NCBI GenBank assembly: GCA_030606485.1
Contig: JAUWGH010000003.1
Coordinates: 330,001 to 362,000, forward strand
Source: Promethearchaeota archaeon
Lineage (GTDB): Archaea > Asgardarchaeota > Lokiarchaeia > Sigyniarchaeales > SOKP01
Length of the DNA: 32,000 bases
Direction: 5' to 3'
In this document: in pieces, positions 14,388-17,508 of the stretch
How positions within the stretch are numbered: position 1 is the first letter of the stretch
Layout: each line of letters begins with the position of its first letter
The notes under the pieces: generated by a model
What the model was told of the DNA's origin: nothing
The model's input: the letters and a program-made list of their open reading frames with translations, nothing else
The model's database searches: none
Position numbers and translations under genes: made by a program

Positions 14388-16913
14388 CTAAAATCCTGAT
14401 TCTTCTTTCAGTTGTTTAATTTCTGAAATATAATTATCTGCTTTTTCGATCCAACATGTTTTGGTTTCAAGTTCACATATCATCCCAGTTGAAATCTTTT
14501 TTCCTTTTTCAATATATTCAGTTGCTAAATCATATTCACCAAGTTCTTTATAACAATTACCCATTTTGATATATGTCTCATAAGAAAAGTAACCATATGG
14601 TTCAAGCTCTAATGCTTTTTGAAATTCTTTTATAGCTTCTTTAAATTCATTAAACATCATAAATATTTCACCATAAGAATCATGGTAATTTCCATTATTT
14701 GGAACAAGGGATACTAATTTTTTAGCAGCTTCTATAGATTCTTCTTTTTTCTCTAAATATGCTAACCCATAAACTTTACTATTCAGAAATTCGTAATCTT
14801 CAGGGTATAATTCAATTAAACTGTTAAGTATTTTTATTCCTTCATCAAATTCTTTCATTTTATAAAAAATATGTGCTTTTTTCCATAAAAGATCCTTTCT
14901 TTTCTCTGGAAAATCTTTAATACCTTCTTCTAATAAGGCTAATATATCATCGAATCTATTAACTGAAATTAAAATGTGTATTTTGGTGAAAAAGAGACAA
15001 ATATTTTTTGGATTTAGATCAATAGCAAAATCGATTGCATTAAATGCTTCTTCATATCTTTTCAATTCTCGCAAAATAGAACTTTTTAATTGATAAAATA
15101 GGGATATGTTGGATTTATTAGGCTCTAATGAAATAGTCTTATCAATCATATCTAAAGCAATATCCTCGTGTGCTTTTTGTGTATCAAATTTATAAATAAT
15201 ATTATAACCAAGCACTAGTGCTTTTGTTGCATAGGAAATAGGAATATCAGAATAAAGTTCGAGCAATTCATTAGCAACATTTAAAGCCTTCTCAAATTTT
15301 CCAAGAGTCATATAACAAAACGCTAATATAAAAGAAGAAGAAGCATAAATCTCTTTTTGAACAAGATTAATATCTATTTCTTTATTCAACAATTCAATGG
15401 CATCTTTATGTCTATTGGATACACATAAAATTATTGCTTTCAGAAGATAAAGTTCAAAGTTTTTTGGATTCAGTTTAAGATCAGAATCTACAATTTTTAA
15501 ATCTTCATTAAATTCTTTCCTTCTCTCAAATTTTTTTTGTTTTATTAAGTAATCTAGTTTAAATGAAAAATAAGGTTTTAGTGTTTTAAATATCTCCAGG
15601 TTTAAATTATACTTAAATTCACTTGGTTCAATAAAATCATATTGGGAATCAGTAGAATCATAAGTTTGAAATGCATCAGGAATATTTTGCCAAACGATAC
15701 CTTCTAATTTATCTAGTGGATCAATTAATCTTTTTTCAGTTTCGATTTTATAAGCCAAATATTTAATATATTCTGGTAAAAAATCTCTTAATGATTCTTT
15801 CAAATTTTTATTAAATACACTATCACAGATATCATCTAAGATATTGTCTAATAAATGTGTTAAATCTAAAGATGTATTAATGTAAAAAGTTTTTTCATAA
15901 AGCTTATTCAAATAAGTTAATTTTACGATATAATCTTTCACTATGGCTCTTAATACTTTCTCTATTCTCTCATTTACTTGAAAAAAATAAGCTTTACCTT
16001 GCTCATCTTCTAATTTGAAAAATTTTATTGTATAAAAATTTTCTTCTACAATTTTATAAATGTAATAATCAAGAATTGTTTTTTTAATATTATATTTATT
16101 AGAGAATTCCTCAGGTGAAATATATTCAGGATATTGATTCGGATGATTTAGGGAAAGAAAAAGTAAAATTTTGTCAAAATCTTCCTCATTACTTAATGTA
16201 TTTTTAACTTTAGCATAATCTAATTTTAACTTGTTATTTAGAAATCGAAACTTTAATTCATCATCTTCTATTTCATATTTTTCGAAAAATTTTATGGTTT
16301 TTTGTGTAATATCTTCAATTCTTTTGCTTTCTTCTTCCAAAATTGATTGTCGGTCTAGATCATATAATTTCAATATTCTTAAGTATTCCGTCTTACCCTC
16401 TGGAGTAATCTTATATTGCTTATTTTCATTTATTACAAATCCTTTGGTCATTAATAAATTAAGGTTTTTTGATAAAGAAGATTGATTAATTGAAAGAGGT
16501 TCTTCACGAAAATCTGACCATTTACAATAATCATTGTTATTTACCATCCAAAGAATAACATGATCGTAATTCCTTTTACTTATAATTGCTTTTGGAGGAT
16601 AATTTAATTTTCTTTTACCAGATTTTTTTAAATAGACCAACTCACTTAGTCTTTCTTTTCCTGCTGGTGTAATTTGGTAGTAATCTCGCTCAGGTTTTTC
16701 AACAAGACCTTTACTAATAAGATTATTTAACTTACCTGACAGTGTTGACTCACTTATTTCAACTTTAAAATCTGACCATCTACAGAACCTGTTGTTAGAA
16801 AGCATCCATAAAATAATTTGTTCATTATCTCGATTACCAAAAGGAGGACTTAAGACATTCTCAGGTGGATACATTATATTTATATTTTCTGAGTGACTCA
16901 TTATAAAACACAA
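14388..16913 (-). CDS. Putative transcriptional regulator: tandem N-terminal winged-helix domains plus C-terminal TPR array (start TTG 16913, or more likely ATG 16901)
   Basis: Two near-duplicate wHTH units (ILWMxxNNxxCxWSDF...SxLSxxLNxLxxKGxV...YxITPxGK), a third wHTH-like unit at about aa 245-315, and TPRs from about aa 480 (e.g. GNYHDSYGEIFMMFNEFKEAIKEFQKALELEP). Confidence 0.85.
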   Translation of the reverse strand: MCFIMSHSENINIMYPPENVLSPPFGNRDNEQIILWMLSNNRFCRWSDFKVEISESTLSGKLNNLISKGLVEKPERDYYQITPAGKERLSELVYLKKSGKRKLNYPPKAIISKRNYDHVILWMVNNNDYCKWSDFREEPLSINQSSLSKNLNLLMTKGFVINENKQYKITPEGKTEYLRILKLYDLDRQSILEEESKRIEDITQKTIKFFEKYEIEDDELKFRFLNNKLKLDYAKVKNTLSNEEDFDKILLFLSLNHPNQYPEYISPEEFSNKYNIKKTILDYYIYKIVEENFYTIKFFKLEDEQGKAYFFQVNERIEKVLRAIVKDYIVKLTYLNKLYEKTFYINTSLDLTHLLDNILDDICDSVFNKNLKESLRDFLPEYIKYLAYKIETEKRLIDPLDKLEGIVWQNIPDAFQTYDSTDSQYDFIEPSEFKYNLNLEIFKTLKPYFSFKLDYLIKQKKFERRKEFNEDLKIVDSDLKLNPKNFELYLLKAIILCVSNRHKDAIELLNKEIDINLVQKEIYASSSFILAFCYMTLGKFEKALNVANELLELYSDIPISYATKALVLGYNIIYKFDTQKAHEDIALDMIDKTISLEPNKSNISLFYQLKSSILRELKRYEEAFNAIDFAIDLNPKNICLFFTKIHILISVNRFDDILALLEEGIKDFPEKRKDLLWKKAHIFYKMKEFDEGIKILNSLIELYPEDYEFLNSKVYGLAYLEKKEESIEAAKKLVSLVPNNGNYHDSYGEIFMMFNEFKEAIKEFQKALELEPYGYFSYETYIKMGNCYKELGEYDLATEYIEKGKKISTGMICELETKTCWIEKADNYISEIKQLKEESGF

Positions 16914-16963: not shown

Positions 16964-17008
16964 ACTTCACATCGGCTTTTGAACTTCGTGTGAAGTTCGA
17001 CTTCAAAA
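16964..17008. promoter_or_regulatory. Candidate operator in the divergent promoter: ACTTC repeats and inverted repeats
   Basis: GAACTTC-GTGT-GAAGTTC (16981-16998). ACTTCACA (16964-16971) is complementary to TGTGAAGT (16989-16996). ACTTC occurs at 16964, 16983 and 17000. The element lies between TATA-like boxes at 16950-16957 and 17010-17017. Confidence 0.55.
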
Positions 17009-17081: not shown

Positions 17082-17324
17082 ATGGCCCAAGTATGTGAAA
17101 AAAATGCAGCACTTCTCGATAGTGCTGAAATAGAAATTGTTTTAGAAAAACTCCCTGAATTAAGAAAGCAAATCGAGAAAAAAAAAGTTGAAGATAAACA
17201 AGATAAATTACGATTATTGAAATTATTTAATGAAGCAAAATATAACGCTAAATATCATGAAGAGTTAATCCAAATAAAGGTAGTTAAAAGCCAGATTCAT
17301 TTTAGAAACTCTGGAGTTTTTTAA
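17082..17324 (+). CDS. Small hypothetical helical protein (80 aa)
   Basis: ATG with AGTGAT SD-like element at 17068-17073, TATA-like TTATATAT at 17010-17017, and a T-run after the stop. No family recognised. Confidence 0.65.
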   Translation: MAQVCEKNAALLDSAEIEIVLEKLPELRKQIEKKKVEDKQDKLRLLKLFNEAKYNAKYHEELIQIKVVKSQIHFRNSGVF

Positions 17325-17395
17325 AAAATCTAAATAAATTTTTTTACAATATATATTAAAAAAAAATAAAAAATCACAAAAGAGAGAAAAAAAAA

Positions 17396-17485
17396 ATGAA
17401 AACAAATAGAAGAAATAAAGAAAAACAAATAAAAAATAGAATAAATATTCCTACAGGATATAATCCACAGTATTTTATATATTAA
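17396..17485 (+). CDS. Unannotated small ORF, 29 aa: MKTNRRNKEKQIKNRINIPTGYNPQYFIY
   Basis: ATG 17396 to TAA 17485. ATATATTAAA TATA-like box at about 17351-17360, AGAGAG upstream of the start, and a T9 tract at 17492-17500. Confidence 0.55.
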   Translation: MKTNRRNKEKQIKNRINIPTGYNPQYFIY

Positions 17486-17491
17486 ATAATC

Positions 17492-17508
17492 TTTTTTTTT
17501 ATTTTTAT
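17492..17508 (+). terminator. Oligo-T archaeal terminator-like tract after the 29-aa sORF
   Basis: TTTTTTTTTATTTTTAT begins 6 nt after the stop codon. Confidence 0.45.

Follow-up and report, generated by a model that had tools for sequence, protein, structure and literature searches.

A probable 29-codon gene beside a winged-helix/TPR regulator in a Promethearchaeota genome, and the family of aromatic-tailed micro-peptides that shares its setting

Results

The locus and the signals of the 29-codon ORF

The window analysed here, a 32,000 nt stretch (25–30 % GC) of a Promethearchaeota genome, carries a large regulator gene on the reverse strand and, divergent from it, a unit of small genes on the forward strand. 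The regulator gene (14388..16913, reverse strand) encodes a wHTH-wHTH-(wHTH)-TPR protein of 837 aa from the ATG at 16901, or of 841 aa from a TTG at 16913. The first gene of the small-gene unit (17082..17324, forward strand) encodes an 80-aa protein without a Pfam match, and beyond it lies the 29-codon small-protein gene (17396..17485, forward strand), whose product ends in the conserved tail GYNPQYFIY. Both direct reading and the ORF listing place the start of this peptide ORF at ATG 17396, which is 482 nt from the start of the regulator, and its TAA stop codon at 17483–17485. The peptide element is present as a single copy in the 3.75 Mb genome, which encodes one regulator and one peptide gene.

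A Shine–Dalgarno (SD)-like GAGAG (17382..17386, forward strand) is located 9 nt 5′ of the peptide ATG. Sites of this kind precede at least 64 % of the long ORFs in this genome, where SD-led initiation is the rule. Downstream, 6 nt after the stop codon, begins a T9-A-T5 tract (17492..17506, forward strand, with the T9 at 17492–17500) that is predicted to be an oligo-T terminator of the archaeal type, and a T7 tract 3′ of the 80-aa ORF (17339..17345, forward strand) may represent a partial terminator between the two small genes. The TATA-like box ATATATTAAA (17351..17360, forward strand), a putative promoter element 36–45 nt before the peptide ATG, is kept within the genus and is not significant in DNA of 25 % GC; a scan with a sigma-70 model, which is irrelevant here, found no excess of promoter-like sites.

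A previous sequence-only reading of this DNA had reported the start and stop codons, the TATA-like box, the T9 run and a peptide tail with aromatics at four of its final eight residues, all of which direct reading bears out. It had also tied the C/G-rich bases of the spacer to the C-terminus of the peptide, and indeed C and G are confined to the last dozen codons of the ORF. The N-terminal two-thirds of the peptide carry a net charge of about +6; this basic ‘leader’ arises because any A-rich stretch translates to such residues. No signal peptide or hydrophobic segment was seen in the peptide on direct reading. The same reading took the gene to be hidden from standard gene callers, a label that is partly right: the exact 29-aa product already sits in a large public-derived protein collection, within a 90 % cluster of six 29-aa variants. 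Searches of Pfam, NCBIfam and PADLOC gave no match for the peptide or the 80-aa protein.

An ATG ORF of at least 29 aa appears in 16 % of shuffles of the 269 nt spacer; therefore, the ORF by itself is not significant. An SD-like site combined with a T tract of seven or more residues no further than 20 nt from the stop codon accompanies 13 of the 2,468 intergenic ATG ORFs of 20–40 aa in the window genome, the peptide ORF included.

Variation of the locus within the genus

The syntenic region is found in three other species of the genus, at 91–93 % identity. The frame is open in all four species and its sole indel is an in-frame 3 nt deletion in one of them; frame-disrupting variation in relatives, which the sequence-only reading had singled out as telling against a gene, was thus seen in none of the four. 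Five further 29-aa variants occur in public assemblies. ORFs on the opposite strand are broken in sister species by indels of 8 and 6 nt. The SD-like site reads GAGGG in the three sister species, and GAGAG in the window genome only.

Constraint on the window copy is visible in the tail only. The pooled pN/pS of the peptide within the genus is 1.11, with 21 nonsynonymous and 0 synonymous differences in the N-terminal 18 codons and a ratio of ~0.3 in the last 11, where GYNPQYF is invariant and carries one synonymous change. The flanking non-coding DNA is as conserved as the ORF, and the survival of the ORF through 11 substitutions has a probability of ~0.2, a figure to be multiplied by that for an in-frame indel. 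We regard the comparison within the genus as weak evidence for coding. It also bears on the bipartite structure of leader and core that had been read into the peptide: the aromatic tail is conserved, whereas the leader-plus-core reading is weak for the window copy because its N-terminal part is of low complexity and neutral within the genus.

Across the same four species the 80-aa gene has a pN/pS of 1.43, compared with 0.40 for the regulator gene, which indicates that the small partner is changing rapidly or diversifying. Members of the 80-aa gene family are conserved in 59 of 121 genomes of the archaeal family to which the window genome belongs. AF2 models the 80-aa protein as one long helix (pLDDT 75), which is uninformative, and an ESM Atlas look-up of the protein returned only sub-threshold viral ‘hypothetical’ clusters. 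In many relatives the 80-aa gene and the peptide gene are ~28 nt apart, with no T tract between them. The idea that the peptide and the C-terminus of the 80-aa protein are paralogous was dropped (hhalign E 0.054, probability 1 %).

A family of micro-peptides beyond the genus

A BLASTN alignment to a second genus covered the 80-aa gene and, following it, an ORF of 23 codons whose ATG has a GAGGT eight bases ahead of it and whose stop codon is trailed by a T7 tract. Searches seeded from this ORF found more than 60 distinct ORFs of 19–29 codons, nearly all of which have GAGGT, GGTG or GTGAT 7–10 nt before the ATG and an oligo-T tract (T5–T10) 2–12 nt past the stop codon. Their products share a basic N-terminus and an aromatic tail that reaches the stop codon, usually with an (L/I)IIII(K/R/T/Q)N core in between.

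In the three subgroups large enough for the test, pN/pS was 0.23 in the proposed frame against 1.30 and 0.94 in the other frames, 0.39 against 0.87 and 0.63, and 0.32 against 0.82 and 0.63. Purifying selection confined to the proposed frame indicates that the peptide family is translated. Synonymous bias, which had been suggested as a check on the 29-codon gene, is therefore found in these three subgroups of the wider family, but not within the genus, where pN/pS is ~1.1. These peptides of 19–29 residues constitute a previously undescribed family and, as judged from the genomes searched, it is confined to one family of Promethearchaeia (Loki-type Asgard). One family ORF is truncated at codon 10 by a 1 nt insertion (L063/L095, in genome G061), with the downstream frame and stop codon conserved, which reflects either a homopolymer assembly error or a pseudogene.

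Relationship of the window ORF to the family

The window peptide has the length, SD position and post-stop oligo-T tract of the family, as well as the family tail (G/D/S)-Y-(N/H)-x-x-(Y/F)-(I/F)-x-(Y/H) ending at the stop codon. It lacks the hydrophobic (L/I)IIII(K/R/T/Q)N core and has IKNRINI in its place. Shuffle-controlled local alignments of the window peptide with five syntenic peptides gave p values of 0.001–0.01. Twenty-eight peptides from named genomes in other genera, selected by position and nothing else, served as Smith–Waterman queries against the full set of 29,734 small ORFs in the window genome. The window ORF ranked first of the 29,734 for L194, a module peptide of another genus, and ranked 6, 7, 11 and 18 for four more module peptides. 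The agreement lies in the tail: GYNPQYFIY in the window, GYNPNFIIY in L194 and GYNPNYISY in L128, with GYNP-x-aromatic-x-I-Y common to the window peptide and L194.

A profile built from the peptides outside the genus misses the window ORF, which ranks 3,636 among the 29,734 small ORFs. This low rank is attributable to the missing LIIII core of the window copy, since that core dominates the profile, and to the HMMER composition correction. Membership is instead argued from position and tail, which agree with the syntenic peptides.

The aromatic C-terminal motif of the window peptide thus recurs elsewhere, in syntenic peptides of other genera, and the cross-genus tail match joins the SD-like site and the T9 tract in supporting the earlier view of a genuine small gene, and the gene has translation and termination signals of its own. 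We are confident that the window ORF is a genuine gene whose aromatic C-terminus is conserved, and equally confident that it is part of a regulator/small-gene module. The window copy is a reduced version, with no LIIII core, a weaker SD and the transporter described below lost from the genome.

The regulator and the divergent promoter

The N-terminal part of the regulator matches the Pfam families HTH_45, HTH_34, PadR and TrmB, all of the winged-helix type only, and the protein also matches TPR families. In its predicted structure (pLDDT 85), three winged-helix units of helix-strand-strand form and a helical middle region precede a TPR superhelix of paired helices at residues 465–836 (pLDDT ~90). 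The best PDB matches listed by sequence and fold include consensus TPR proteins, OGT, TTC7B, APC/C subunits, Tom70/71 and PEX5, and the nearest are TPRs that bind peptides and tails, such as Tom71, OGT and APC/C subunits. None of Rap, Rgg, NprR, PlcR, PrgX or AimR was among the 63 PDB sequence matches or the listed Foldseek matches. The TPRs of the regulator are canonical, and the protein is not an RRNPPA homologue.

The regulator family is strongly expanded, with more than 400 copies spread over 106 of the 135 genomes in the archaeal family and up to ten per genome. In a sample across the phylum it was found in 56 of the 68 genomes of this family, as opposed to 1 of 232 others.

The divergent promoter between the regulator and the 80-aa gene contains the inverted repeat ACTTCACA-N17-TGTGAAGT (16964..16996), a candidate operator. 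The pair TTCACA-N-TGTGAA occurs only twice in the window genome, and a related TTCACTTCGG...GTGAA element is located 45–57 nt from the regulator start at several loci of another genus.

Layout of the module and its variants

The recurrent layout consists of a regulator gene divergent from a gene of 70–90 aa, followed by a peptide gene with its SD and oligo-T tract. Regulator homologues with 53–63 % identity were found divergent from peptide genes that had been detected independently. Among the 68 named loci with enough flanking sequence, 40 have a 70–90-aa gene 170–300 nt from the regulator start, and in 27 of these 40 a small ORF of 15–35 codons with SD and poly-T follows directly. Small ORFs with both signals number 40 on the divergent strand versus 2 on the other strand. 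A recognisable peptide gene is missing from about half of the regulator loci.

At 12 loci, including that of the sister species G003, the peptide gene is followed on the same strand by an MFS_1/MFS_3 transporter gene of 425–480 aa. These loci belong to the subtype whose peptide tails end like that of the window (the orthologous subtype). In G003 the transporter gene (L012:74-1351, 425 aa) starts 194 nt after the peptide gene and precedes a convergent DtxR gene; G001 and G002 lack it at the corresponding position, and three of the four species in the genus are without it. The window genome has no transporter homologue, and the module is therefore reduced there. Genes for radical SAM, YcaO, lanthipeptide, cyclase or protease functions were not conserved beside the peptide gene at any of ~120 loci, and the genes for an FGE-sulfatase and a GNAT protein in the window do not belong to the module at other loci.

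Several variants of the layout were observed. At seven loci (L136, L137, L141, L144, L150, L152 and L155) the peptide gene is followed by a gene for a zinc-ribbon-like CxxC-CxxC mini-protein of 31–32 aa, with its own SD and terminator, ~700–800 nt from the start of a 990-aa type of regulator; this mini-protein is absent from the window. Members of 23 aa, often as tandem pairs, precede a bactofilin-like gene (weak PF04519) at L064, L068, L086, L110, L113–L117, L120 and L123, loci that also carry an acidic apolipoprotein-like helical protein and have no wHTH-TPR gene within 1.5 kb. As some peptides are without a nearby regulator and some regulators without a peptide, the pairing is not obligatory. 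A 27-aa product at L135:2907-2987 joins the N-terminus of the 70-aa partner (MVQVLEK) to the core and tail of the peptide, as if the two small genes had been fused by a deletion. Regulator variants of 640–660 aa (L165, L168, L170 and L171) are accompanied by an 80-aa protein with an MMQV.VEK start and a C-terminal transmembrane helix, and no micro-peptide gene was seen at these four loci. Downstream of the small-gene unit, at a distance of a few hundred bases, L162, L174, L178, L036, L048 and L054 carry genes for Rab/Ras-like small GTPases. Lastly, the peptide gene faces a convergent gene for a Peptidase_M50 (site-2 protease) at L082:1831-2541, and at L062:2201-3130 a gene for a leucine-rich-repeat protein takes the place of the TPR regulator.

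Discussion

The explanation that best covers the locus as a whole, and that we would accept about as readily as doubt, is that of a module micro-gene whose peptide works with the adjoining regulator. The peptide is most likely a partner or ligand of that regulator. The narrower proposal that it is the direct ligand of the TPR part is tentative, and we place it somewhat short of an even chance; what is left after this proposal and the alternatives weighed below falls to another role for the peptide, for example with the 80-aa protein. We propose a model where the peptide would act together with its neighbouring regulator, its invariant aromatic tail, with a free carboxyl end, docking on the concave side of the TPR superhelix. 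Docking would alter the action of the winged helices on the palindrome of the shared promoter, and the regulator would thereby sense the level of its own small product.

Several other explanations have to be weighed against this model. The frequency of such ORFs among shuffled spacers (16 %) and the equal conservation of flanking non-coding DNA within the genus are in keeping with a chance ORF in a non-coding spacer, or with a small RNA or 3′ UTR element. The first rank that the window ORF takes for a syntenic peptide from another genus argues against both, as do the 8 and 6 nt indels that break the opposite-strand ORFs in sister species; no Rfam family was matched, and the RNA fold is no better than that of shuffles (z −1.35). 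We consider a chance ORF or RNA element highly improbable. Decay of the genus copy, in contrast, would leave the family itself real: the copy would have drifted after transporter loss and would no longer be functional. A pN/pS of ~1.1 with exclusively nonsynonymous changes in the N-terminal part is what a relic might show, and low-complexity A-rich codons in place of the LIIII core, the weakening of the SD from GAGGG to GAGAG in the window genome only and the missing MFS gene in three of four species point the same way. However, the ORF is intact in the four species and in the five further 29-aa variants, with its sole indel in frame, and the GYNPQYF tail is invariant despite a synonymous change. 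Furthermore, G003 has kept the transporter and yet has the same peptide type, and the bona fide 80-aa gene has an even higher ratio (1.43), so that rapid evolution may be usual for such partners. On balance, we find a decaying relic unlikely.

The neighbourhood of the peptide gene raises the question of export. The conserved regulator and the MFS_3 neighbours would, by analogy, fit a logic of receptor, peptide and exporter, in which the peptide or its C-terminal part is secreted as a pheromone, re-imported and sensed by the TPR regulator. Beside the receptor-like regulator that adjoins the peptide gene, this reading can draw on the gene for an MFS_3 ‘transmembrane secretion effector’ directly after the peptide at the 12 loci of the orthologous subtype, on the Peptidase_M50 gene that converges on the peptide gene at one locus, and on the presence of up to 10 divergent paralogous modules per genome, as in the Rap-Phr or Paenibacillus systems (PMC7425212, PMC9765709). 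However, the window peptide has no signal peptide or hydrophobic segment, a transporter homologue is absent from the window genome, and the MFS protein could simply be a regulated efflux pump. We judge a secreted pheromone quite unlikely, and attach the same low expectation to the wider corollary that Asgard archaea independently invented peptide-based cell-to-cell signalling, with dozens of receptor–peptide pairs per lineage. The transporter could also be read as the target of a cis-acting leader peptide: translating the short ORF would govern whether the oligo-T tract is read through into the gene beyond it (MFS or bactofilin-like), and the product itself would have no role. Bacterial leader peptides precede MFS or resistance genes, and in the present family nearly all members have their stop codon 2–12 nt ahead of the T tract, often with a same-strand gene downstream, which is suggestive of this arrangement. 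We nevertheless regard a leader peptide as very unlikely, given the purifying selection along the entire peptide, the 190–450 nt that separate the peptide gene from the next gene and the convergent orientation of the next gene in the window; to our knowledge, ribosome-mediated attenuation is not established in archaea. The RiPP-like precursor that the sequence-only reading had put forward has in its favour a short peptide with a conserved Pro/Gly/aromatic C-terminus. It is unsupported here because no modification enzyme is conserved nearby at any of the ~120 loci inspected, and the Cys, Ser or Thr pattern of known classes is absent; we rate it extremely improbable.

The model of a peptide working with its adjoining regulator concerns a strongly expanded, family-wide module in the archaeal group closest to eukaryotes, which unites eukaryote-type TPRs, DNA-binding domains and micro-proteins that standard annotation tends to skip. 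The literature covered by our full-text search describes no archaeal peptide-sensing transcription switch. If the peptides are ligands, the module represents a simple, testable regulator–ligand pair; export of the peptides would make it the first peptide pheromone system of archaea. The window, in which the regulator, the 80-aa gene and the peptide gene each occur once, holds the simplest version of the module for testing.

Comparison with known systems

Bacterial leader peptides, which control resistance or transporter genes downstream of them, resemble the present genes in that a tiny ORF with an SD comes immediately before a terminator, with an MFS gene beyond it in full modules. They differ from the family, in which purifying selection acts over the whole length and a long gap precedes the next gene, and from the window, which has no downstream gene on the same strand.

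A different likeness is offered by Tom70/Tom71, Hop (EEVD) and PEX5 (PTS1), TPR receptors of short C-terminal peptides with a free carboxylate. Tom70/71 and PEX5 are among the best matches to the TPR part of the regulator in both sequence and fold, and in the peptide family the stop codon has a fixed place directly behind the conserved aromatic tail. However, these proteins are chaperone or import adaptors rather than DNA-binding proteins, and their ligands are the tails of large proteins.

The receptors of the RRNPPA systems of Bacillota carry 5–9 TPR or TPR-like repeats that form a superhelix (PMC9765709). As in the Rgg/SHP and ComR/ComS members of this group (PMC9765709), the cytoplasmic regulator described here joins a DNA-binding domain to a TPR superhelix and is encoded beside a very short peptide gene; likewise, the C-terminus is the conserved part of the peptide, there are many diverged paralogous pairs per genome, and many receptors are without a peptide gene of their own. 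The two differ in that RRNPPA receptors have an N-terminal HTH of the XRE type or a three-helix bundle, whereas the window regulator has two to three winged-helix units and canonical 34-residue TPRs, with no homology between them. The window module is archaeal, is confined to one family and includes an extra partner gene of 70–90 aa. An RRNPPA propeptide is exported and matured, with its C-terminal part as the signal, and the mature peptide re-enters the cell to bind the TPR pocket; the window peptide has no export signal. Among known systems, the RRNPPA group is the nearest by logic, not by descent.
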